Source: an uncultured Bacilli bacterium (GTDB taxonomy: Bacteria > Bacillota_I > Bacilli_A > RF39 > UBA660). Taken from it: 64,000 nucleotides of DNA. The notes beneath the pieces were generated by a model that was not told where the DNA came from, did not search any database, and was given only the letters and a program-made list of their open reading frames with translations. Shown piece by piece: positions 7,509 through 48,486 of the stretch; position 1 is the first letter of the stretch; each line of letters starts with the position of its first letter. The DNA is taken from positions 7,352-71,351 of the forward strand of contig CALVZO010000008.1 in NCBI GenBank assembly GCA_944372545.1. Reading direction: 5' to 3'. The position numbers and the translations under genes were made by a program.

Positions 7509-7520
7509 AGACTACTCCTT

Positions 7521-7603
7521 AAAATAAAAAAGCACACACAAATAGGGAGTGACGTGGCTGCTGTCTTCCAACTCTGACCAAATTACACTATATTTGTTGT
7601 GCA
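7521..7603 (-). ncRNA. ffs: Small (4.5S-type) signal recognition particle RNA: a single hairpin with its U-run terminator
   Basis: The minus strand reads GCACAACAAAUAUAGUGUAAUUUGGUCAGAGUUGGAAGACAGCAGCCACGUCACUCCCUAUUUGUGUGUGC UUUUUUAUUUU. It contains the domain IV signature GGUCAG..GGAA tetraloop..AGCAGCC. The terminal arms pair, and a U-run follows. Confidence 0.75.
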
Positions 7604-7608
7604 AATTA

Positions 7609-7637
7609 ATAATAACACATTACTTAATTATTAGCAA
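7609..7637 (-). promoter_or_regulatory. Sigma-A type promoter for the SRP RNA (-35 TTGCTA, 17-nt spacer, -10 TATTAT)
   Basis: On the minus strand, TTGCTA (7637..7632) is followed by a 17-nt spacer and TATTAT (7614..7609), about 6-7 nt upstream of the first paired G of the RNA. The -35 directly abuts NBS-like palindrome copy 1. Confidence 0.5.
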
Positions 7638-7639
7638 AA

Positions 7640-7655
7640 TATTTCCCGGGAAATA
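7640..7655. promoter_or_regulatory. NBS-like palindrome copy 1: TATTTCCCGGGAAATA (exact Noc-binding-site 16-mer)
   Basis: Perfect 16-mer inside a 20-bp perfect palindrome (7638..7657). Confidence 0.8.
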
Positions 7656-7827
7656 TTCTGCAGTTAAATTGCTAAAACACTACCAATTTTATTAATTTGG
7701 TAATTATTCAGTTAAACAATTTATTTTAAAAATGTTTTAAGAATTAATATCAAATTAAAAACAATTGCAAAAATATGTATATTTTTAACACAAAATCTTT
7801 ATTTAAAAAGTTGTTTTTCAAAAAAAA

Positions 7828-7843
7828 TATTTCCCGGGAAATA
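7828..7843. promoter_or_regulatory. NBS-like palindrome copy 2: TATTTCCCGGGAAATA
   Basis: Perfect 16-mer inside a 30-bp perfect palindrome (7821..7850: A7-TATTTCCCGGGAAATA-T7). Confidence 0.8.
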
Positions 7844-7848
7844 TTTTT

Positions 7849-7876
7849 TTGCCAATTTTACAATTTTGACAATAAT
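7849..7876 (+). promoter_or_regulatory. Promoter-like spacing TTGCCA-N16-AATAAT, 6 bp downstream of NBS copy 2
   Basis: -35-like TTGCCA (7849..7854) and -10-like AATAAT (7871..7876). The same architecture recurs at 7973..8000 (TTGTCA-N16-AATAAT), 8688..8715 (TTACCA-N16-AATAAT) and, more weakly, 8860..8887. No ORF lies downstream. Confidence 0.3.
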
Positions 7877-7890
7877 CCGACTTGTTTTTT

Positions 7891-7912
7891 TACCAATTTT
7901 ATAAAATTGGTA
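7891..7912. repeat. Perfect 22-bp palindrome TACCAATTTTATAAAATTGGTA (second repeat family)
   Basis: Identical to 8730..8751. About a dozen imperfect relatives occur only inside the island, starting near 7681, 7851, 7975, 8016, 8046, 8141, 8690, 8762, 8862, 8894, 8925 and 9017. Confidence 0.8.
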
Positions 7913-7952
7913 CATTTTTCAAAAAATTAGAAGTCGCTATCACCCCAAAAAA

Positions 7953-7968
7953 TATTTCCCGGGAAATA
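7953..7968. promoter_or_regulatory. NBS-like palindrome copy 3: TATTTCCCGGGAAATA
   Basis: Perfect 16-mer inside a 28-bp perfect palindrome (7947..7974). Confidence 0.8.
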
Positions 7969-8106
7969 TTTTTTGTCAATTTGTTAATTTTGGTAATAAT
8001 CATAACTGCTTTTTGCTATTTTTATCAAATTGGTAGTTATATAATTCCAATTATATTAAAATGGTAATACTTTTGTATTAATTTAACAAACTTACATTGA
8101 TAAAAT

Positions 8107-8122
8107 TATTTCCCGGGAAATA
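8107..8122. promoter_or_regulatory. NBS-like palindrome copy 4: TATTTCCCGGGAAATA
   Basis: Perfect 16-mer inside a 28-bp perfect palindrome (8101..8128); the flanks differ from the other copies (TTATTT instead of ATATTT). Confidence 0.8.
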
Positions 8123-8284
8123 ATTTTATACTAAATTTTCTGAATTGGTAATATATAAAACTAATTTAATTATTATAAAACTTGTTTACTATAAATTTAT
8201 TTCTTGTCTACATAAAAAATTCAAAATAATTTTAAAAAATAGTTTTAATTCATTCAACTGTTTTTAGCATCGATGTTTAATTGA

Positions 8285-8300
8285 TGTTTCACGTGAAACA
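8285..8300. promoter_or_regulatory. parS: parS site 1: TGTTTCACGTGAAACA (perfect ParB/Spo0J centromere consensus)
   Basis: Exact match to the Firmicute parS consensus TGTTNCACGTGAAACA, embedded in a 34-bp perfect palindrome (8276..8309); intergenic. Confidence 0.85.
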
Positions 8301-8566
8301 TCAATTAAATGCAAAATATATAATGCTCTAATAATTACTCAAATTTATATATAATTGTATTAAATTTAGTTAAATTATTTATTTAATTATACCTTTGTTT
8401 TAAAAAGGGTTATTGGTTAGTATATTATTTTAATAAAAAATTGAATATATCTAATAATATTAAAAAAATTATATACCAAAATATGCTTTTATTTAATAAT
8501 TTTACATTTTTAATTAATATTATGTTTCAAAATGAAAATGCACGTTTAAATATTGAACATAGAATA

Positions 8567-8582
8567 TGTTTCACGTGAAACA
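8567..8582. promoter_or_regulatory. parS: parS site 2: TGTTTCACGTGAAACA
   Basis: Exact parS 16-mer inside a 26-bp perfect palindrome (8562..8587), 282 bp from site 1; intergenic. Confidence 0.85.
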
Positions 8583-8729
8583 TATTCGTTGTAATTAATT
8601 AAAAAATTATAATAACTGAATTGATTCTCATTTAAATATATTAAAAATAAATAATAAATGCTCTATATTTGAAATTTTGAAACAATTATTACCAATTTTG
8701 TAATTTTGGTAATAATTTGATTTGCTTTT

Positions 8730-8751
8730 TACCAATTTTATAAAATTGGTA
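8730..8751. repeat. Perfect 22-bp palindrome TACCAATTTTATAAAATTGGTA (second copy)
   Basis: Exact duplicate of 7891..7912; both are preceded by (C/G)TT(G)TTTTT. Confidence 0.8.
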
Positions 8752-8838
8752 ATTATACTTTGCCAAATTCTTGAAATTGACAAAATTTTTAAAAAATTTA
8801 AATTTTTTATATAAATTTACTACATAATCGTGATTAAA

Positions 8839-8854
8839 TATTTCCCGGGAAATA
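8839..8854. promoter_or_regulatory. NBS-like palindrome copy 5: TATTTCCCGGGAAATA
   Basis: Perfect 16-mer inside a 22-bp perfect palindrome (8836..8857). Confidence 0.8.
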
Positions 8855-8994
8855 TTTTTTTGCCAATTTGTTAATTTTGACTCAAATTTTTTTGCTAATT
8901 TTATTAAATTGGTTATTATATAATTCCAATAATGTTAAAATGGTAATATTTTGGTAATATTTTTATATATTAAACAAACTTACATTGATAAAAA

Positions 8995-9010
8995 TATTTC
9001 CCAGGAAATA
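8995..9010. promoter_or_regulatory. NBS-like palindrome copy 6, variant: TATTTCCCAGGAAATA (one central mismatch)
   Basis: 15/16 match (CCCAGG instead of CCCGGG); same A-run/T-run flanks as the perfect copies. Confidence 0.65.
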
Positions 9011-9114
9011 TTTTTTGCCAAATCTTTTAAATTGATTTATATAAAATAAATTAAATTATTATAATTTTGCATTACTGTAATTTTTTTCTTTTAAACATAA
9101 AAAAAAGTTCAAAA

Positions 9115-9130
9115 TATTTCCCGGGAAATA
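9115..9130. promoter_or_regulatory. NBS-like palindrome copy 7: TATTTCCCGGGAAATA; may also act as the gyrA terminator
   Basis: Perfect 16-mer inside a 32-bp perfect palindrome (9107..9138), 8 bp past the gyrA stop codon. Confidence 0.8.
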
Positions 9131-9145
9131 TTTTGAACTATATTC

Positions 9146-11641
9146 TTATTCTTTTTCTTCTGTTTTATCTACGATGCTAATTGTTGAAACGATTTGATTT
9201 TCTCTTAATGATATAAGTCTTAATCCTTGCGTAACTCGGCTTAAAGTTGAGATTTGATTAACTGGTAATTTAATAGTAATACCAGCATTTGTCATAATAA
9301 TAACATCTTTATCTTCTTCAACTATTTTTATTGCAACTAAGTTACCATTTTTTTCAGTTACTTTAAGTGCCAATACACCCTTGCTACCTCTTCTAGTTTG
9401 TCTAAATTCGCGAACTTTAGTTTGTTTTCCGTAACCCTTCTCAGTAACAAGTAACACAACGGATTCATCATTAACAACTTCAGCACAGATACAATTGCCG
9501 CCATCTAAATTAATTCCTTTAACTCCAGCAGCAGTTCTACCCATAATACGTACCTCAGATTCAATAAATTTGACTACTTTTCCTTTATCGCTACCTAATA
9601 ATATCATATTATTGCCATTTGTCTTTTTAACATCGATTAATTCATCATTATCATTTAATTTGATACAAATTTTTCCTGAATTGCGAATATTTTCAAATTC
9701 TTCTAGTTTAGTTCTCTTAATTACTCCTTTTTTTGTTGCGAAGAATAAATATTTTTGCTCTTCTTCTCTATCTATTTTTAATATCGAATTAATCTTTTCA
9801 TCTTTTTCAATTGATAATAAATTAATTATAGGTAAACCTTTTGACTGTCTACTATATTCAGGAATTTCATAGCCTTTAAGTCTATATACTTTACCTTTAT
9901 TGGTGAAGAACATAATATAATCATGAGTTGATAAGTTGATTAAATTTTCAACATTATCTTCATCATTAGTTGTAACACCTTTAATTCCTACACCACCACG
10001 ATTTTGAACTTTAAAAGTATCATTAGAAGTTCTCTTTATATAACCTTTTTGTGTTATCATTACCATTGAATCTTCTTCAGGAATTAATGATTCATTTTCG
10101 ATAAATTCAATGGCTGTCATATCGATTTTTGTTCTTCTTTCATCACTATATTTGTTTTTAATTTCGGTTAATTCTTTTTTAATTAAATCAAGAACTTTTT
10201 GTTCTGAAGCAAGAATTGCTCTTAATTCCTCAATTTCTTTTAATAACGCATTTAATTCTTCTTCAATTTTATCTCTTTCAAGTCCAGTTAATCTTCTTAA
10301 TTTTAATTCTAATATAGCATCAGTTTGAATTTCATCAAGACCAAAACGCGACATTAATTTTTCTTTAGCATCAGCATCATCTAAAGCATTTCTGATAATT
10401 TTTACAACTTCATCAATGTTATCTTGGGCTATTTTATAACCATTTAAAATGTGAACTCTTCTTTCGTCTTTGGCTAAATCAAATTTTGTTCTTCTAATAA
10501 TAACTTCTTTTTGATGGTCTATATATTTAGAAATAATTGCTTTTAAACTTAGTGTTCTTGGTGTTAACCCATCAAGCATTAAGAATATAATTCCATAACT
10601 TACTTGAAAAGAAGTGTGTTTATATAAATTATTTAAAACTACTTGCGGATTAGCATCTTTTTTAAGTGTTATAGTTATTTTAACACCATCTTTTAAATCT
10701 GTATGATAGTCAGAAATTCCATCAATAATTTTAGAGTGAACAAGTTCAGCAACTTTATTCTTTAGTTCCATTGTATTAACTTCATAAGGAACTTCAGTAA
10801 TTACAATGGCATTATGACCGTTAATTTCTTCGATTTCGGCTTTACTTCGAATAGTAATTGAGCCTCTTCCTGTTTCATATGCTTTTTTAATACCAGAATT
10901 ACCTAAAATAATACCACCAGTTGGAAAGTCTGGACCTTTTATATATTGCATTAATCCTAAAGTATCAATTTCTGAATTATCAATGTAAGCAATACAACCA
11001 TCAATTACTTCTCCTAGATTATGGGGAGGTATATTTGTAGCCATACCAACGGCAATTCCTTTTGAACCATTAACTAAAATATTTGGAAACCTAGAAGGAA
11101 GAACTTTTGGTTCTTTTTTTGTAACATCAAAGTTGTCGTCCATATCTACAGTATCTTTATTAATATCTCTTAATAATTCTAAAGAAATTTTTGCAAGTCT
11201 TGATTCAGTATAACGCATTGCTGCTGCGCCATCACCCTCGATATTACCGAAGTTTCCGTGACCATCAACCAGCATATATCTTTGATTAAAATCTTGAGCA
11301 AGTCTAACCATTGCTTCATAAATTGATGAGTCTCCATGTGGGTGATAATGCCCCATAACATACCCAACTGTAGTAGCACATTTTCTATGTGGTTTATCTG
11401 GAGTATAACCATTTTCATACATTGACCATAAAATACGACGATGTACTGGTTTTAAGCCATCTCGTAAATCAGGAAGAGCACGCGATGCAATAACACTCAT
11501 TGAATATTCCATAAAAGAAGTTTTAACTTCATCAACTATGTTATTGTGATCTAATCTATCTCTTTCATGAAAATAGCCACTGAAGTTAGAATTATTAACA
11601 TTTGTTTCATTTGTATTATTTAAATTTTCATTATTTTCCAT
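9146..11641 (-). CDS. gyrA: DNA gyrase subunit A
   Basis: 831 aa; RALPD.RDGLKPVHRR, active-site region AAMRYTE, C-terminal beta-pinwheel repeats. Confidence 0.97.
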   Translation of the reverse strand: MENNENLNNTNETNVNNSNFSGYFHERDRLDHNNIVDEVKTSFMEYSMSVIASRALPDLRDGLKPVHRRILWSMYENGYTPDKPHRKCATTVGYVMGHYHPHGDSSIYEAMVRLAQDFNQRYMLVDGHGNFGNIEGDGAAAMRYTESRLAKISLELLRDINKDTVDMDDNFDVTKKEPKVLPSRFPNILVNGSKGIAVGMATNIPPHNLGEVIDGCIAYIDNSEIDTLGLMQYIKGPDFPTGGIILGNSGIKKAYETGRGSITIRSKAEIEEINGHNAIVITEVPYEVNTMELKNKVAELVHSKIIDGISDYHTDLKDGVKITITLKKDANPQVVLNNLYKHTSFQVSYGIIFLMLDGLTPRTLSLKAIISKYIDHQKEVIIRRTKFDLAKDERRVHILNGYKIAQDNIDEVVKIIRNALDDADAKEKLMSRFGLDEIQTDAILELKLRRLTGLERDKIEEELNALLKEIEELRAILASEQKVLDLIKKELTEIKNKYSDERRTKIDMTAIEFIENESLIPEEDSMVMITQKGYIKRTSNDTFKVQNRGGVGIKGVTTNDEDNVENLINLSTHDYIMFFTNKGKVYRLKGYEIPEYSRQSKGLPIINLLSIEKDEKINSILKIDREEEQKYLFFATKKGVIKRTKLEEFENIRNSGKICIKLNDNDELIDVKKTNGNNMILLGSDKGKVVKFIESEVRIMGRTAAGVKGINLDGGNCICAEVVNDESVVLLVTEKGYGKQTKVREFRQTRRGSKGVLALKVTEKNGNLVAIKIVEEDKDVIIMTNAGITIKLPVNQISTLSRVTQGLRLISLRENQIVSTISIVDKTEEKE

Positions 11642-14764: not shown

Positions 14765-15217
14765 TTAAAGAAAATTTCTTTTTTTTCGATAATTTAAAAC
14801 CCCTTTTATTTTTATTGCATTAAATATTAAATTTTCAAAACTATTTAATGATATTAATGTACGAAAACTATACTTATTTAGACAATTTATTAATAAATAA
14901 TAATTTTTTTGTTCATAATTTAATACTTTATTAAAAATTAATAATAAACACTCATCTTTTCTTAAAGAATTTAGTTGCAATAAGATTATATTATTGTCAT
15001 CATCAATAATTATTGGTACTTTATACTTGATATTTAAGACATTTTGGGCAAATTTTTTTCGCCCTAAAAAAGTACTTCCATAATATTTACAATTATACTC
15101 CAATATATAATTTATATTTTTGTTAATAACTTCTATTTTATTAACATTATAAATTATTGTTTTATTTCCTTTTTTTAATAATCCAATTGTATCTTTAGTA
15201 ATTAAATATTTTTCCAT
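14765..15217 (-). CDS. ComK-family protein (competence transcription factor-like), short 150-aa form
   Basis: By my recollection of B. subtilis ComK, CKYYGSTFLGRKK matches CRFFGSSYAGRKA, KVPIIIDD matches KPPIMVDP, and SLNSFENL matches SYNSFENQ. GGAGGG RBS; own promoter-like TGgTATAGT; preceded by the dnaN terminator. Confidence 0.65.
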   Translation of the reverse strand: MEKYLITKDTIGLLKKGNKTIIYNVNKIEVINKNINYILEYNCKYYGSTFLGRKKFAQNVLNIKYKVPIIIDDDNNIILLQLNSLRKDECLLLIFNKVLNYEQKNYYLLINCLNKYSFRTLISLNSFENLIFNAIKIKGVLNYRKKRNFL

Positions 15218-15274: not shown

Positions 15275-15288
15275 ATTTCCCAGAAAAT
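15275..15288. promoter_or_regulatory. Degenerate NBS-like element ATTTCCCAGAAAAT (12/14)
   Basis: Same AAATATTTCCC left arm as the island copies; the right half is decayed. Lies between the dnaN terminator and the comK-like gene. Confidence 0.35.
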
Positions 15289-17958: not shown

Positions 17959-18038
17959 TCATAAATATCCCAAATTAATTGTAACTTAAAAGAATTTTTA
18001 TTACAACAATAAATTAGAAAAAAATTATTTCTACAATT

Positions 18039-18216
18039 TTTTCCACATAATTTTCTTCCATATTTCTCTATATTAAAATAATTTTTCCACATTTTCAACA
18101 AAAATATTAGTAACTTTCTAACATATTAATTTCTCTTTTTATTTTTTTAATGTTAAAAGTGTTGAAAACCTAATAGAAGGCTTATATATCAATGTTTTTA
18201 AAAATAATTTTCCACA
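18039..18216 (+). promoter_or_regulatory. oriC: oriC, cluster of DnaA boxes upstream of dnaA
   Basis: Three identical TTTTCCACA boxes (8/9 to TTATCCACA) at 18039..18047, 18083..18091 and 18208..18216, all in one orientation, plus weaker TGTTGAAAA-like elements near 18160. Confidence 0.7.
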
Positions 18217-18725
18217 AATTAATAAATATTATAATAAATTTATGTAATATAAATGTTAATAACTTATATTTTATATTTTTAATATCATTTTTATATTTTT
18301 GATATTCTTCGATATTTAAAACTTCACCTTATATTGATTTGATTATTGATAAATCTGTTTCTTTTATGACATTTTGTGCATTATTTTGGTTTTCTTGCAT
18401 AGAATATCTAGTAGATGTGTTAGAATTTACATTTTGGGTTGTTTGTGATACATTATTGGTAGTTAAAGACCCGTTGGCGCCGTTATTAACGGAAGAGCCA
18501 CTAATTACGGGTCTTTTTCTTTGCTCTAATTTACCAACATTATATATTGTATTAACATTTCCATTTTTTTGTGGCAAAATTCATATATCTAGTCTATATA
18601 TCTTATTCTATATATAATGTTTAATTAAAATAAAAAATTTGAAGAAAAAAACATTATATATTAATGAAATATATTTTAAAAAAAAACTAGGTTAATTCTT
18701 TTAATTCTGTCAATAGTTTTTGAAA

Positions 18726-19089
18726 ATGTCTCAAAAAAAGTTAAACATTAGCGAGAAAATTTATTCCAATTTCCTTGCTGACAAATTAATTTTATTTGTA
18801 TTGATTTTAAGTCGTTATCTTCGGAGATGGCCTTATCTAATGTACTAACTGGGTTTCTTGATCAATTACCATGTACAAAAGCTGATTTGCCTTTCTCCTT
18901 ATATTTAACAATAATATGATCAATTTGTCTTCTTGATAGACCGAGCTTTTTACTAGCTCTGTTTTTGTTTCCATTATGATCTACTAAATCTTTGATCACT
19001 TCATATTTCAATTGTTCATTCATTCTTAATTCAACCTTTCTCATATTCATCACCAAGTGATGTATTCTACAGTAATTGAGACATAATCA
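18726..19089 (-). mobile_element. Internally deleted IS remnant (~364 bp) bounded by 9-bp inverted repeats
   Basis: ATGTCTCAA (18726..18734) and TTGAGACAT (19081..19089) are reverse complements and bracket the transposase fragment. Confidence 0.45.
18748..19056 (-). pseudogene. Truncated transposase: N-terminal HTH only, with an in-frame stop and then a short tail
   Basis: The 64-aa ORF ..NEQLKYEVIKDLVDHNGNKNRASKKLGLSRRQIDHIIVKYKEKGKSAFVHGN* resembles the N-terminal HTH of rve-type (ISNCY-like) transposases of Firmicutes. Reading through the TGA gives 37 more codons and then ends. No catalytic domain is present. Confidence 0.5.
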
Positions 19090-19222
19090 AATACTAACAC
19101 TTAAGACATTATCATATTCTAATCATAAGATATCAAAAATTATTAATAAAAAATATTGCAAAAATCTCTTACATGCTTTAAAATTAAATTATATGTGAAA
19201 TACATGATAAGGAGTGGTTATA

Positions 19223-19486
19223 ATGGAAATTACAAAAGTACGTGTTCACAAAATTGAAAGAGAAGGCTCAAGACTAAAAGGTTATGCAACTGTAACACTT
19301 GATGACTGTTTTGTAGTCACAAATATTAGAATTATTGAAGGAGAAAACAGATTATTTTGCGCAATGCCAAGTCGTAAAGTAAATGATAATAAATTTGAAG
19401 ATATTGTTCACCCAACTAATGTTGAAACAAGAGAAATGTTTGAAACAAAGATTTTAGAAGAATACAATAATCCAACAGAGGAATAG
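19223..19486 (+). CDS. spoVG: Septation/sporulation regulator SpoVG
   Basis: MEITKVRVHKIEREGSRLKGYATVTLDDCFVV..I.IIEG; AAGGAG RBS upstream of the ATG at 19223 (the track start at 19214 is a GTG extension). Confidence 0.93.
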   Translation: MEITKVRVHKIEREGSRLKGYATVTLDDCFVVTNIRIIEGENRLFCAMPSRKVNDNKFEDIVHPTNVETREMFETKILEEYNNPTEE

Positions 19487-19535
19487 TTTAGTACTATTTC
19501 TTTTTTATTGGCATATTATTTTAAGGGAGGCATTT

Positions 19536-19829
19536 ATGGAACAAACAATTGATTTAAATCCAAGTTATGGCAGTCATGAAATTAAAATAATTGACCGAAG
19601 TCTTATAAGTTTATCAGGAATTAAAAAGATAGATAGTTTTGATAATGAAGAATTTTTAATGGAATCAAATATGGGAACTATTTTGTTAAAGGGTGAAAAA
19701 CTAGAAATAATAAAATTAGATACTCATGAAGGTAATGTAAAAATTAAGGGAAAATTAAATAGTTTTGTTTATTTAGAAAATGTTAAAAAAAATAAAGAGG
19801 AAAGTATTCTCTCTAAGTTATTTAAGTAA
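19536..19829 (+). CDS. yabP: Sporulation protein YabP
   Basis: 97 aa; the pattern LSGIKKIDSFDNEEFL..T..G.L.IKGE.L.I..L is typical of YabP; GGGAGG RBS. Confidence 0.85.
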   Translation: MEQTIDLNPSYGSHEIKIIDRSLISLSGIKKIDSFDNEEFLMESNMGTILLKGEKLEIIKLDTHEGNVKIKGKLNSFVYLENVKKNKEESILSKLFK

Positions 19830-27475: not shown

Positions 27476-28807
27476 ATGAATAATAATGAAAATGAAGAAA
27501 AAATAGGGATTAAATCTAAATTTAAAATACCTTTAATAGTTATTGGTGTTCTTTTAATAGTAGTGTTAACTATAGGGATTTATAAATTTTTCCAAGTTAA
27601 AGATGCAAGAAGTCTTTATACAAGTATTCTTAACGATTTTGAAAGTAAGTTAGTTAGTAATCTTAATATTAAAGATGATGCTAAAATATATAGTATTTCT
27701 GGTAATTTATTAATAAATATTGATTCAAATGATAGTGAAATCAATAGTATTGGTGAAATTTTAAATAATTTAAAAATAAATTATGAAGTACAAATGGATT
27801 TAAATAAGAAATTGGAAAATGTATTACTAAGTACAACTTATGATAATAAAAACTTATTAGATTTAGGACTATATTTAAAGGAAGATACAATGTATGTTGA
27901 TTTAGGTGATTTATATAATAAGAATATTAAATATAGCGATGAAGAATTAAAAGAAGTTTGGGAAGTAATAGATACCAATGATTATGAAACAATTATTAAA
28001 GAGTTTAATAAAATTATTCAAGATAATTTAAAAGAGGAATATTTTAAAGAGGAAAGTGGTAAGACAAAAGTAAATGGTAATGATATAAATACTAAGAGTT
28101 ACATTTTAGAAATAAAAGGAACAGAAGTATATAATTTTGAAAATAACATTATAAATTCAATTGAGGAAAACGATAATTTAATTGTTCTTTTAAGTAAAAC
28201 TGGTGGTATGACAGAAAGTGATGTAGTAACATACTTAGATAACGCTAGAGAAGAATTAGTAGAAAATGAAGATGCCATAATTCGATTAGAAATTCATGCT
28301 AAAGGATTTATGGAAGAAACAGCCAAAGTTTTAGTTAACATAGATAACGAAGTAATTGAGTTCCACCAAAATAAAAAAGATACTTATAACATTATATATA
28401 ATGATGAAGAAATTGGTTCATTAGTAAATAAGAAAAATAATAAAGAAGTAAATATTAATCAAGATGGTAATACATTTACTTATGAATATGATGGAAAGTT
28501 ATGTACAATAGAATTTAAAGATAATAATGCAAGAGTGTATTTAAATATTGAAAATAATGAAAAAATTAATTTTATGTTAGGTGTAAATGAAGATGATACA
28601 AGTATAGAAATTGTGTTAGATGGAGTTATAAGTGATGCTATTAGTGAAGTATCAAGCAAAGATAATGAAGAATATGTTGATTATAACAATTTAACTGAAG
28701 AAGATATGGAAACTATTTATAATAATTTATATAATAATGAGGCTTTACTTTCTTTAATTGAAGATTTATCACAAACTTCATTATTGCAAAATTTAATGTT
28801 ATTTTAG
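27476..28807 (+). CDS. Hypothetical membrane-anchored protein (one N-terminal TM, then an acidic Asn/Glu/Ile-rich ectodomain)
   Basis: Long ORF with codon usage like its neighbours, a TM segment (FKIPLIVIGVLLIVVLTIGIY) and a strong terminator directly after the stop. I recognise no family. Confidence 0.6.
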   Translation: MNNNENEEKIGIKSKFKIPLIVIGVLLIVVLTIGIYKFFQVKDARSLYTSILNDFESKLVSNLNIKDDAKIYSISGNLLINIDSNDSEINSIGEILNNLKINYEVQMDLNKKLENVLLSTTYDNKNLLDLGLYLKEDTMYVDLGDLYNKNIKYSDEELKEVWEVIDTNDYETIIKEFNKIIQDNLKEEYFKEESGKTKVNGNDINTKSYILEIKGTEVYNFENNIINSIEENDNLIVLLSKTGGMTESDVVTYLDNAREELVENEDAIIRLEIHAKGFMEETAKVLVNIDNEVIEFHQNKKDTYNIIYNDEEIGSLVNKKNNKEVNINQDGNTFTYEYDGKLCTIEFKDNNARVYLNIENNEKINFMLGVNEDDTSIEIVLDGVISDAISEVSSKDNEEYVDYNNLTEEDMETIYNNLYNNEALLSLIEDLSQTSLLQNLMLF

Positions 28808-42857: not shown

Positions 42858-42972
42858 AGGGAAAGGTAATACTTTCTTTTTTTATTTTAAAAAGTATAAT
42901 TTTTCTACAATATTTATGTTAGATATGATAAAATATTAATTAGTGGAAATATAAAATTAATAGAGGTGTGTT

Positions 42973-43758
42973 ATGGCAAAAGTTATTTCATTAGTTAATC
43001 AAAAAGGTGGGGTTGGTAAAACTACAACAAGTATAAATTTAGCAGCAGCATTAGGAAAAGAGGGGAAGAAAGTATTATTAATTGATTTAGACCCACAAAG
43101 TAATGCAACTACAGGTCTTGGGCTTAATTCTAATGATTTTGACCATGATATTTATGAAGTAATTACGAATAAATGTAGTATCGAAAGTGGTATAAAAAAA
43201 ACTAAATTTGAAAATTTAGCGATAATTCCATCAACATTAAATTTAGCAGGTGTTGATGTTGAATTTGTAAAGAGAATGTTAGAAGATCAAGATTTTCATC
43301 AAAATGAACAATTAAAAAACGCAATAAATGAGATTAGACATATATTTGATTATATTATTATTGACTGTCAACCATCATTAGGGCTTGGAACAATGAACGC
43401 ATTAGTAGCAAGTGATTCTGTTATTATTCCCGTTCAATGTGAATTTTTTGCATTAGAAGGTATTACGCAACTTTTAAATTCAATTATTATGGTTCAGTCT
43501 AGTATGAATCCAACATTAAGAATTGAAGGAGTATTACTTACAATGCTAGATGGAAGAACTAACATAGGATTAGAAGTTATTGAGGAAATAAGAAAATATT
43601 TTAAAGATAAAGTATTTAATACAATTATTCCTAGATTAGTTAGATTAGTTGAAGCCCCATCTCATGGTAAACCAATTAATGAATATGATCCAACAAGCAG
43701 AGCCACTGAGGCTTATAGAAATTTGGCAAAGGAAGTGATAAATAGAAATGGAAACTAA
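42973..43758 (+). CDS. soj: Chromosome partitioning ATPase ParA/Soj
   Basis: Deviant Walker A NQKGGVGKTTT, DLDPQ.N.T, IDC.PSLG. Confidence 0.93.
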   Translation: MAKVISLVNQKGGVGKTTTSINLAAALGKEGKKVLLIDLDPQSNATTGLGLNSNDFDHDIYEVITNKCSIESGIKKTKFENLAIIPSTLNLAGVDVEFVKRMLEDQDFHQNEQLKNAINEIRHIFDYIIIDCQPSLGLGTMNALVASDSVIIPVQCEFFALEGITQLLNSIIMVQSSMNPTLRIEGVLLTMLDGRTNIGLEVIEEIRKYFKDKVFNTIIPRLVRLVEAPSHGKPINEYDPTSRATEAYRNLAKEVINRNGN

Positions 43759-44629
43759 AAAGAAGGCATTAGGTAAAGGATTAGAACAATTATTTACAAA
43801 TAATGTAATTAATTTTGATAATTTTGAAAAAGAAATTGTTACGGAAAATAAAAAAGATGTAACAATGATTAATTTAGATGAAATAAGAAGTAATCCTTAT
43901 CAACCAAGAAAGACTTTTAATGAAGATAGTTTAAAAGAGTTAGCCGCTTCAATTAAAGAATATGGTGTAGTGCAACCTGTTATTGTTAAAAAAAGTATTA
44001 AAGGTTATGAATTAATTGCGGGTGAAAGAAGATGTAAGGCATCAAAGATGGCTGGATTAAAAGAAATACCGGCAATAATTAAAGACTTTACTGACCAAGA
44101 AATGATGGAAATTGCTCTTATTGAAAATATTCAAAGAGAAGATTTAAATCCAATTGATGAGGCTAAAAGTGTAATGAATATTATTAAATTAAGAGGATTT
44201 ACTCAAGAAGAATTTGCGGAAAAATTTGGAAAAAGTAGAAGTTATATTACTAATTTATTAGGGTTATTAAAACTTCCTCTTAATATTCAACAAATGGTTA
44301 TTGATAAGAAGATATCTTCATCTCACGCAAGAGTTTTAAGTAAATTAGAAGATATAGAACAAATTGAAGAGTTAGCAAAGAAAATAGTTAATGAAAATTT
44401 AAATGTAAGGGATTTAGAGAGTATTGTAACAAATAAAGATGTTGTTAAAAGAAAACCAATTAAAGTTGCTATAAAAGAGCCAATGTTTAATATGTATGAA
44501 GAGGCTATTAGTGATAAAATTGGAAATATTGTAAGAATTAAAAAGAATAAAATAGAAATCAGTTTTGATTCTGTAAAAGATTTAGAAAGAATAATGGAAA
44601 TATTAAATATTTCTCTTGGAGATGAGTAA
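43748..44629 (+). CDS. parB: ParB-family CTPase/DNA-binding protein (Spo0J-like; specificity positions mixed)
   Basis: ParB-type N-terminus KALGKGLEQLF, box II IAGERRCKAS, HTH FTQEEFAEKFGKSRSYITNLLGLLKLP, ..SSSHARVL; overlaps the soj stop. Confidence 0.9.
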   Translation: METKKKALGKGLEQLFTNNVINFDNFEKEIVTENKKDVTMINLDEIRSNPYQPRKTFNEDSLKELAASIKEYGVVQPVIVKKSIKGYELIAGERRCKASKMAGLKEIPAIIKDFTDQEMMEIALIENIQREDLNPIDEAKSVMNIIKLRGFTQEEFAEKFGKSRSYITNLLGLLKLPLNIQQMVIDKKISSSHARVLSKLEDIEQIEELAKKIVNENLNVRDLESIVTNKDVVKRKPIKVAIKEPMFNMYEEAISDKIGNIVRIKKNKIEISFDSVKDLERIMEILNISLGDE

Positions 44630-47475: not shown

Positions 47476-48486
47476 ATGAGTCATGAAGAGATATTAAAAA
47501 GAATTGCAGAAATTATTAATTTAAGTGAAAAAAGAAGTAAAATTGATAAAGATATTACAAATTTAATACGTTTTAATCATTATTTAATAAATAATAATTA
47601 TGCCGAAGAATTTAGTTTATTAATTGATATATTAATTGATATGGAAAGAACAATGTTATTATATAATGATACAAATACACCTTATGAAAAAACTTATCAA
47701 TTATTAGAAGAGTGTCAAGATTTATATAAAAAGGAAAATAATCCATTATATTTAGAATTAGTAACTATTTTAAATGTTAGTATTAATTGTGAAGATATAA
47801 GTGAATTAACAGAGATGCAAAATTATTTCATTAAAAGAGATAAAATAAAAACATTTATTGATATATGTAGAAAATTAAAAGTTGGAGTTGCCAAGAAATT
47901 AATTGATGCAGATAAAGAGGAATTAAAAAAAGTTGTAAGTGGTGAAAAAGAAAAATCACAAAGAAGAAGAAATAACTCTTATATGGAAAATAATTTAACT
48001 AAAGAAGAAAATAGGGAAGAAAACATAGTTCAAATTGAAGATGCTAATAATAAACAAAGTTTAGAAGAACCAATGATAAAAGGAAAATTTAAAGAACTAA
48101 TATATTTAGGTATGCAAAATATACTTACAATAGATATGGTAATAAGTTTAAAAAATGTTTTAAATGATAGTGAATTTGGAGAATTGTTAAGTAATTTAGG
48201 TAAATTTCAAATATTTTCAAAAGAAGAATTATATTATATAAAAAATGAAGCGACAAAGACTATGAAAACAATTAACAATATAGATGAATTAGTTGCCTTT
48301 TTATCAATGCGAAGTAACATTAATTTAAATGGATTAAAAGCATTAATTCCTAGTATTGGTATTGATAATTATTATTATTTAGTAGATAGATTATATCAAT
48401 TTGGATCAATTGACTTTCCTCAATATAAGAAACATTTACAAGAATTTGGTTTTTTAGAAAATGATAACAATAAAAAAAGAAGATAG
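47476..48486 (+). CDS. Hypothetical soluble protein (336 aa; helical, Lys/Glu/Asn-rich)
   Basis: Long ORF with a GGAGGA RBS, tightly following ychF. I recognise no motif. Confidence 0.55.
   Translation: MSHEEILKRIAEIINLSEKRSKIDKDITNLIRFNHYLINNNYAEEFSLLIDILIDMERTMLLYNDTNTPYEKTYQLLEECQDLYKKENNPLYLELVTILNVSINCEDISELTEMQNYFIKRDKIKTFIDICRKLKVGVAKKLIDADKEELKKVVSGEKEKSQRRRNNSYMENNLTKEENREENIVQIEDANNKQSLEEPMIKGKFKELIYLGMQNILTIDMVISLKNVLNDSEFGELLSNLGKFQIFSKEELYYIKNEATKTMKTINNIDELVAFLSMRSNINLNGLKALIPSIGIDNYYYLVDRLYQFGSIDFPQYKKHLQEFGFLENDNNKKRR

Follow-up and report, generated by a model that had tools for sequence, protein, structure and literature searches.

The window (the whole 64-kb stretch of DNA analysed here, from an uncultured Bacilli bacterium) carries, in the non-coding gap downstream of gyrA, a pair of perfect parS sites. 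The best explanation, to which a probability of roughly 0.8 is given, is that these are functional parS sites where ParB-CTP clamps would be loaded and the main partition complex near the origin would form, with Noc-type sites placed around them and with the gyrA-proximal Noc-binding site (NBS) serving also as a terminator. According to this mechanism, dimers of the ParB/Spo0J protein encoded in the window (43748-44629) would bind both 16-bp palindromes, and the parS-bound protein would take up CTP, close into a clamp and slide onto the neighbouring DNA. The clamps would build an origin-proximal partition complex on which Soj/ParA would act and which, as in Firmicutes, would recruit SMC. The NBS around the parS array would be bound by a Noc-type ParB paralogue, and the NBS hairpin closest to gyrA would also end gyrA transcription. 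That ParB binds here, is loaded as a clamp and recruits SMC, and that the NBS have a role, are inferences. The parS pair taken alone is ordinary; the noteworthy part is the composite of parS and NBS.

The parS pair and its uniqueness

Two perfect copies of TGTTTCACGTGAAACA lie 282 bp apart (start to start), as the original prediction claimed. The first is the centre of a perfect 34-bp palindrome (TTTAATTGATGTTTCACGTGAAACATCAATTAAA, 8276-8309) and the second the centre of a perfect 26-bp palindrome (GAATATGTTTCACGTGAAACATATTC, 8562-8587); pair and palindromes alike were borne out by a sequence check. The smaller details of the prediction hold as well, namely a duplication of GATGTTT to the left of site 1 (copies at 8272-8278 and 8283-8289) and a lone TGTTTCA half-site at 8523-8529, which is probably a decayed parS copy.

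The pair comprises the sole matches to TGTTTCACGTGAAACA at up to 3 mismatches in the 64 kb (0.33 expected at that tolerance). At about 25% GC, the chance expectation for a perfect copy of the 16-mer is about 1e-5 per window by a rough estimate. Both copies agree perfectly with TGTTNCACGTGAAACA, the consensus criterion of a chromosomal parS (ParABS), and positions 8283-8302 are identical to the 20-bp parS duplex that was crystallised with ParB. On every sequence-level criterion for a chromosomal parS, the pair counts as true parS of the canonical kind, found in a further organism. The species is represented by a second, independently made assembly, GCA_947854765.1 (L082), which over 11.7 kb shares 99.7% identity with the window and keeps the gap and both parS, site 2 being unchanged. 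Because this independent assembly carries both, the gap and the parS pair are not an assembly artefact.

Table 1. Features of the window, in order of position (coordinates are those of the window)
Feature	Position	Strand	Remarks
SRP RNA	7518-7613	minus	left border of gap
Non-coding gap housing all motifs	7614-9145	.	1.53 kb, GC 16.7%, between SRP RNA and gyrA stop
NBS 1 (ATTTCCCGGGAAAT)	7641-7654	.	directly upstream of -35, promoter-like site of SRP RNA
Third palindrome, 3 mismatches	7680-7703	.	consensus TTACCAATTTTATAAAATTGGTAA
NBS 2	7829-7842	.	ATTTCCCGGGAAAT match
Left direct-repeat copy	7846-8230	+	about 400 bp; holds NBS 3 and 4 and third-palindrome copies
Third palindrome, 1 mismatch	7890-7913	.	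consensus TTACCAATTTTATAAAATTGGTAA
NBS 3	7954-7967	.	ATTTCCCGGGAAAT match
NBS 4	8108-8121	.	177 bp from parS 1; broken by G>A at 8117 in L082
parS site 1	8285-8300	.	perfect 16-bp consensus, centre of 34-bp palindrome; hairpin -12.5 kcal/mol, z = -5.1
TGTTTCA half-site	8523-8529	.	isolated; relatives' parS copies turn over rapidly
parS site 2	8567-8582	.	perfect 16-bp consensus, centre of 26-bp palindrome; hairpin -9.4 kcal/mol, z = -5.6
Right direct-repeat copy	8686-9110	+	holds NBS 5 and 6
Third palindrome, 2 mismatches	8689-8712	.	consensus TTACCAATTTTATAAAATTGGTAA
Third palindrome, perfect copy	8729-8752	.	consensus TTACCAATTTTATAAAATTGGTAA
NBS 5	8840-8853	.	273 bp from parS 2
NBS 6 (ATTTCCCAGGAAAT)	8996-9009	.	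one mismatch; perfect in strain L082
NBS 7	9116-9129	.	centre of 34-bp palindrome 9106-9139, 17 bp past gyrA stop, then minus-strand T-run
gyrA	9146-11641	minus	right border of gap, stop codon at 9146
dnaA	16585-17958	minus	DnaA boxes upstream
Three TTTTCCACA DnaA boxes	18039-18216	+	upstream of dnaA, marking oriC
soj/parA	42973-43758	+	partition ATPase; overlaps parB start
parB/spo0J	43748-44629	+	293 aa, presumed parS-binding CTP clamp; GERR motif; R-L-K-S at 173/179/184/201

The gap between the SRP RNA and gyrA

The original prediction described an island with the parS pair at its centre. The pair stands; overlooked were seven NBS, a third family of palindromes and direct repeats of about 400 bp around the pair. 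The two direct-repeat copies have a column identity of 80% and lie on either side of the parS pair, and four of the seven NBS fall within them. The third palindrome, the species-specific 24-bp TTACCAATTTTATAAAATTGGTAA, is present in four copies at up to 3 mismatches and in weaker ones, all of them in the gap. It is absent from the rest of the window and was found in 0 of 80 relatives, and we know of no regulator motif that matches it. A known RNA inside the gap was considered and rejected, as an Rfam scan of the gap gave, aside from the SRP RNA, just hairpin-type chance matches. Promoter-like matches in the gap (37 vs 20 expected) were judged uninformative in DNA that is 83% AT.

The NBS-type palindrome ATTTCCCGGGAAAT occurs in six perfect copies and one copy with a single mismatch, all within 7641-9129 (0.24 expected), four to the left of the parS pair and three to the right. 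With its T/A flanks, ATTTCCCGGGAAAT is the NBS of the structural and biochemical papers on Noc, and B. subtilis and S. aureus have the same NBS core. Outside the gap the window has just one match, a relic with two mismatches at 15275, and the NBS found between dnaN and comK of the closest relatives is decayed in the window. The window and L082 differ at about 12 positions within the gap, two of which break or repair an NBS. The hairpin formed around NBS 7 is likely the gyrA terminator, since it lies just past the end of gyrA and, on the strand of that gene, a T-run comes after it.

The origin, soj and parB

The distance of the pair from the DnaA boxes had been put at about 9.5 kb, which agrees with 9.5-9.9 kb to oriC as located by DnaA boxes and GC skew. 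The genes to the right of the gap are, in order, gyrA, gyrB, recF, a ComK-like gene, dnaN and dnaA. A second origin inside the gap was rejected because the GC-skew minimum and the DnaA boxes lie at 18-19 kb of the window and the gap is without a DnaA box. The soj and parB genes follow directly after rplQ. A mismatch scan of the window found no parS-like site in either gene, in accord with the original prediction for parB. Near its origin the window is without the block of genes from rpmH to noc; instead, a stretch that runs from yabP through the S10, spc and alpha operons to rplQ lies between oriC and soj. No smc or scpAB gene was seen within the 64-kb window, and a tblastn search of the window for a second ParB-family gene, with Spo0J and the Noc-like protein P0219 (see below) as queries, gave parB alone.

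The ParB of the window scores 189 bits against the ParB domain model TIGR00180, above the cut-off of 58, and 236 bits against the Noc model, below the cut-off of 315, and its closest solved structures are those of Spo0J/ParB. It is 42% identical to the presumed sequence of B. subtilis Spo0J, and the Soj of the window is 55% identical to the presumed sequence of B. subtilis Soj. Four positions that set the specificity of ParB and Noc were defined by Jalal et al., R173 being a parS-type residue while Noc has Q173 and R201 (PMC7383237). In an alignment with Spo0J of B. subtilis and Noc of Geobacillus, the window ParB has R173, L179, K184 and S201, the last being an atypical variant at a position where G is typical, and all 120 closest ParB orthologues have R-L-(K/N/R)-S. 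With the parS-type residue R173, and without the Q173 and R201 of Noc, the window ParB should bind parS and not the NBS.

Conservation of parS and NBS in related species

The comparison set consisted of 80 loci obtained via GyrA from one-genome-per-species contigs of metagenome-assembled genomes of uncultured gut Bacilli (rabbit, Hadza human and ruminant samples). Identity to the GyrA of the window reaches at most 78% in the set, which places the window species itself outside the collection. The order dnaA-dnaN-(comK)-recF-gyrB-gyrA-gap-SRP RNA-tadA-dnaX is conserved throughout the relatives. The parS and NBS sites were counted in those 73 loci whose sequence continues for 500 bp or more past gyrA, and sites with up to 1 mismatch were taken as parS-like. 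These loci hold 244 parS-like sites within 2 kb downstream of gyrA vs 0 in the other 1.25 Mb. At least one parS (1-10 copies) is present in the gyrA-downstream gap of 65 of the 73 loci; the remaining 8 are without canonical parS in the 2-kb stretch, and some of these have a variant site or an array after tadA. The copies number 3 at the median with a median spacing of 130 bp, and some relatives have regular tandem arrays with periods of 53, 62 and 117 bp. The pair of the window, two copies 282 bp apart, is at the sparse end for the clade.

A blind count of perfect palindromes in the gaps of the relatives gave three recurrent kinds only: TGTTTCACGTGAAACA (151 perfect copies in 54 loci), the symmetric parS variant TGTTCCACGTGGAACA (41 copies in 13 loci) and the NBS, TATTTCCCGGGAAATA (100 copies in 48 loci). 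TGTTCCACGTGGAACA corresponds to the Pseudomonas-type parS variant, known from P. aeruginosa. The spacer DNA of the gap outside the motifs does not align between species. Conserved motifs in unaligned spacer form the pattern that would be expected of selected protein-binding sites. The recurrence of parS after gyrA, the unconserved spacers and the presence of soj-parB support the identity of the sites as parS and the earlier reading of the locus as an origin-proximal centromere.

A real parS pair may also be just one of several dispersed origin-proximal loading sites, with no special weight. Bacillus subtilis has about ten parS, mostly within genes, and such an arrangement would fit the two copies in the window vs up to ten in relatives; moreover, the portion of the genome scanned for parS comprised about 74 kb (the 64-kb window and 10 kb from L082). 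This arrangement is distinctly unlikely in view of the relatives, where the 1.25 Mb of origin-proximal flank in the 73 species holds no parS-like site, where none was found in or near parB in the 21-kb parB regions of three species and where every array is at the same syntenic spot. The gyrA-downstream gap is most likely the principal centromere of the window species, since it is in the gap after gyrA that the clade-wide parS array sits.

The NBS are concentrated in the same place. The 2 kb downstream of gyrA hold 0.72 NBS per kb vs 0.038 per kb elsewhere, a 19-fold difference, and they are found there in 51 of the 73 species. Outside the gap, the relatives have 49 perfect NBS, 30 of which fall within long ORFs, dnaX and recF among them, vs a chance expectation of about 0.002 (a rough estimate). 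These 49 sites in the flanks are independent support for a protein that reads the NBS in the clade.

Extended symmetry and hairpins

Symmetry that reaches beyond the 16-bp consensus had been taken to suggest either cruciform potential or additional contacts. The extended symmetry is real and clade-wide; of the two explanations, the cruciform option is kept and additional base-specific contacts are disfavoured. Position -1 is A in 98% of 189 unique parS contexts, making the core effectively 18 bp, and the sequence further out is unconserved. Symmetry of at least 5 bp per side is seen in 33% of parS vs 2.1% when flanks are re-paired between loci, and symmetry of at least 9 bp per side in 7.4% vs 0.1%. 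The extensions of the window sites (9 and 5 bp) are typical of the symmetric tail of the clade. Extra base contacts of ParB as the cause of the symmetry were rejected beyond the A at -1, for the flanks are self-complementary but unconserved, and symmetry that is specific to each site and has no sequence preference argues against such contacts. It points either to selected intrastrand pairing (terminator or insulator hairpins, cruciforms) or to putative palindrome-perfecting mutation by template switching.

Single-strand DNA hairpins of the gap palindromes have energies of -9 to -12.5 kcal/mol (z -3.3 to -6.3), and a terminator scan of the gap gave 4 terminator-like matches vs 0.3 expected, parS 2 being among those flagged. 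If such pairing were their main function, the palindromes would be chiefly nucleic-acid hairpins: cruciforms, or else elements that terminate transcription or insulate gyrA from the SRP RNA-tadA-dnaX genes, which run in the same direction. The NBS at 9116 has the form that such a function would require, a 15-bp stem with a T-run behind it just past gyrA, and in most relatives with both motifs an NBS comes first after gyrA (see below). The site-by-site self-complementarity of the unconserved parS flanks is likewise covariation-like. However, the stems of hairpins could vary freely, yet the 16-bp cores do not vary across 54 species for parS and 48 for the NBS, and they are the very sequences that experiments have defined as sites of ParB and Noc. 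In addition, most parS are without a T-run, and termination makes no sense at the 30 NBS inside long ORFs, all of which makes a purely structural role highly improbable. A dual use of the palindromes as protein site and hairpin is compatible with the preferred explanation, a functional parS array with a terminator at its gyrA-proximal NBS.

A Noc-type paralogue in the clade

A DNA pattern for the Noc recognition helix, applied to metagenomes, gave an AT-rich seed, and a protein search from this seed gave P0219, a protein of 341 aa that is encoded on the same 59-kb contig as the gyrA locus of one relative (L015). The gene order around it, rpmH-rnpA-yidC-jag-mnmE-mnmG-rsmG-P0219-soj-parB, is canonical. 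P0219 and about 100 similar proteins, which are widespread in the clade, have Q173, K179 and R201, a combination that suffices for NBS specificity (PMC7383237). The clade paralogues score 275-307 bits against the Noc model (P0219 278), just under the cut-off of 315, and contain a long acidic/lysine-rich linker. They are without the N-terminal amphipathic helix that Noc needs for membrane binding and nucleoid occlusion (PMC8429893). The paralogues start about 14 residues before PxxQPR vs 37 in Geobacillus Noc, and the relatives have an in-frame stop 5 codons upstream of the start.

For the window species, a Noc paralogue was found neither in the 64-kb window nor in L082 nor by exact-protein look-ups at the window ends, and protein searches found no noc for the subgroup of the window. 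Near relatives by ParB (84% identity) have the same rplQ-soj junction and are without noc there. We consider it quite likely that the window species has a Noc-type paralogue, and the NBS of the gap are presumably bound by this type of protein.

Ordered arrangement of NBS and parS

The two kinds of motif are arranged in a recurrent order. Among the 47 loci that have both, an NBS leads the series behind gyrA in 36 (shuffle mean 17.4), and not one of 5000 label shuffles gave so high a count; like the other counts of this paragraph, it ignores shared ancestry. An NBS is at both outer ends in 13 of 32 loci vs 5.4 expected, ancestry not being taken into account. In nine loci an NBS and a parS form a tight dyad, their starts being 26-28 bp apart (exactly 27 bp in six of the nine), and in several dyads a DnaA box (TTATCCACA or TTTTCCACA) makes up the 11-bp spacer. 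DnaA boxes are about three-fold enriched in the gyrA-downstream region of the relatives; the gap of the window has none. In a limited literature search, NBS concentrated and ordered around parS, with a helix-less Noc-type reader, were not found described.

Repeats alone could have produced much of this clustering if the gap, the largest near the origin that is free of genes, were a largely neutral landing pad, where tandem and segmental duplication would multiply any motif present and NBS, parS and the third palindrome would gather without a joint function. The direct repeats of about 400 bp and 80% identity explain four of the seven NBS of the window, the relatives have their tandem arrays and the spacer DNA turns over fast. 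The same explanation would accommodate the two among about 12 strain differences in the gap that break or repair an NBS, as well as the decay of the orthologous dnaN-comK NBS in the window. A neutral origin is possible, with the odds leaning against it, as it does not account for the 19-fold density of NBS in 51 of 73 species, for the non-random order in which the NBS comes first or for the recurrence of the 26-28-bp dyads. 

The arrangement may extend the proposed function of the parS array to a composite centromere of two proteins, in which parS would load ParB clamps while NBS, set deliberately around or between the parS copies, would load a Noc-type paralogue that is without the membrane helix. 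This is put forward tentatively and is itself rather doubtful. If it is true, the paralogue could fence ParB sliding, as a boundary or roadblock, or could co-assemble with ParB at the origin. In some relatives the dyads are fixed at 26-28 bp, several with a DnaA box as spacer, and the paralogue may also feed into replication control. Coupling of ParB and Noc clamps of this sort was not found described in the limited literature search.

Significance

The parS pair is useful for annotating the origin and centromere in the small AT-rich genomes of this unstudied lineage of uncultured gut Bacilli. The added value is in the context, a compact intergenic parS array that is clade-wide and at one syntenic spot, with Noc-type sites concentrated there. 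ParB and Noc, sister proteins that both act as CTP-gated clamps, are as a rule treated separately from each other. Loading sites that are 11 bp apart provide a natural substrate for asking whether ParB and Noc clamps block, confine or mix with each other. The arrangement also raises the questions of whether a Noc-family protein without a membrane helix may have a centromere-related role and why parS sites gain extended symmetry that is site-specific.

Comparison with known systems

Among the closest known systems is Spo0J(ParB)-parS-Soj of B. subtilis, with which that of the window shares the same 16-bp parS, the origin-proximal location, soj beside parB, the GERR motif and R173. The two differ in that the sites here are intergenic and form one cluster after gyrA, whereas those of B. 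subtilis are dispersed and mostly intragenic. In addition, parB here contains no parS, soj-parB follows rplQ here and rsmG-noc in B. subtilis, and ParB here has S201 and the clade-wide R-L-x-S signature, unlike B. subtilis Spo0J.

Clusters of parS are present in other bacteria. Pseudomonas aeruginosa is reported to have four parS beside oriC (PMC4368675) and Corynebacterium glutamicum ten in its vicinity (PMC7083940). The arrays of the present clade are similar in having several parS near oriC, presumably as redundant ParB loading sites. Unlike those clusters, the clade packs its parS into 0.3-2 kb of one non-coding gap, and the copies are often units of tandem repeats and are interleaved with the sites of a second ParB-family protein.

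The flanking palindromes are like those of the Noc-NBS system of Bacillus and Staphylococcus, in that they are the 14/16-bp NBS (TATTTCCCGGGAAATA) and that a relative has the paralogue at the position rsmG-X-soj-parB. The clade paralogue, unlike the Noc of Bacillus and Staphylococcus, is without the membrane helix and scores below the NCBI Noc cut-off. While the known NBS are scattered over the origin-proximal chromosome, the NBS of this clade are concentrated 19-fold around the parS array.

Palindromes and repeats around the parS pair

Seven palindromes that match the Noc-binding site (NBS), ATTTCCCGGGAAAT, are present between 7641 and 9129 in the non-coding gap that holds the parS pair, four to its left and three to its right. 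Six of these are perfect and one has a single mismatch. Outside the gap, the 64 kb of the window contain no further NBS save one relic with two mismatches at 15275, and the closest relatives (L018, L020 and L030) carry a perfect NBS at the comK-dnaN spot of this decayed copy. A third palindrome family of 24 bp, TTACCAATTTTATAAAATTGGTAA, is restricted to the parS gap in the window and was found in none of the 80 related gut Bacilli with a gyrA locus. The NBS and the third palindrome together make up the module that has been duplicated by direct repeats of about 400 bp.

When the window is compared with L082 (the second assembly of the same species), NBS 4 and NBS 6 (numbered left to right through the gap) each show a G/A change within their CCCGGG core, at 8117 and 9003 respectively; these are two of about a dozen differences in the gap. 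Thus, each strain has one broken copy, and the broken site differs between the strains.

Features of the window and of the related locus L103
Feature	Position	Remark
Third palindrome	7680-7703, 7890-7913, 8689-8712, 8729-8752	
Third palindrome, weaker copies	8014, 8045, 8893	
Direct repeats, ~400 bp	7846-8230, 8686-9110	80% identical; on either side of parS pair
ComK-family gene	14765-15217	inserted between dnaN and recF
Decayed NBS ATTTCCCAGAAAAT	15275-15288	between comK and dnaN
Intervals bearing on missing rpmH-to-noc block	17959-19536, 42858-42972	
P0219, Noc-type paralogue	L103 10001-11026	

DnaA boxes and variant parS in relatives

In the gap downstream of gyrA in L037, L047, L056, L064 and L019, an NBS and a parS flank a DnaA box (TTATCCACA or TTTTCCACA). 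The first four of these loci have tight NBS-parS dyads (26-28 bp start to start) whose 11-12-bp spacer is the DnaA box. DnaA box density in the relatives is 0.58 per kb within 2 kb after gyrA versus 0.205 per kb elsewhere. Arrays of a symmetric variant, TGTTCCACGTGGAACA, replace canonical parS in 13 related loci (e.g., L041 and L042).

Gene order near oriC

The rpmH-rnpA-yidC-jag-mnmE-mnmG-rsmG-noc block adjoins oriC in almost all relatives and is missing from the origin region of the window species (compared with L103); rpmH is absent from the 64-kb window. The interval from oriC to soj is instead occupied by yabP, the ribosomal operons and rplQ, and the gene-order breakpoint falls exactly at the expected position of noc. 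A minority of relatives (15/80 loci by tblastn) share the placement of the ComK-family gene.

Two ORFs, 27476-28807 (443 aa) and 47476-48486 (336 aa), have no match in Pfam or NCBIfam. The orthologue of the latter sits after ychF in relatives and is 337 aa in L106/L107.

ParB and the Noc-type paralogue

The clade's Noc-type paralogue (P0219 and about 100 related proteins) has the NBS-type residues Q173, K179 and R201 and a long acidic/lysine-rich linker and is missing the N-terminal membrane-targeting helix. A second, frequent form is 487-491 aa. At specificity position 201, the window ParB (43748-44629) has S where G is usual, and an R-L-(K/N/R)-S signature is common to all 120 of its closest orthologues.
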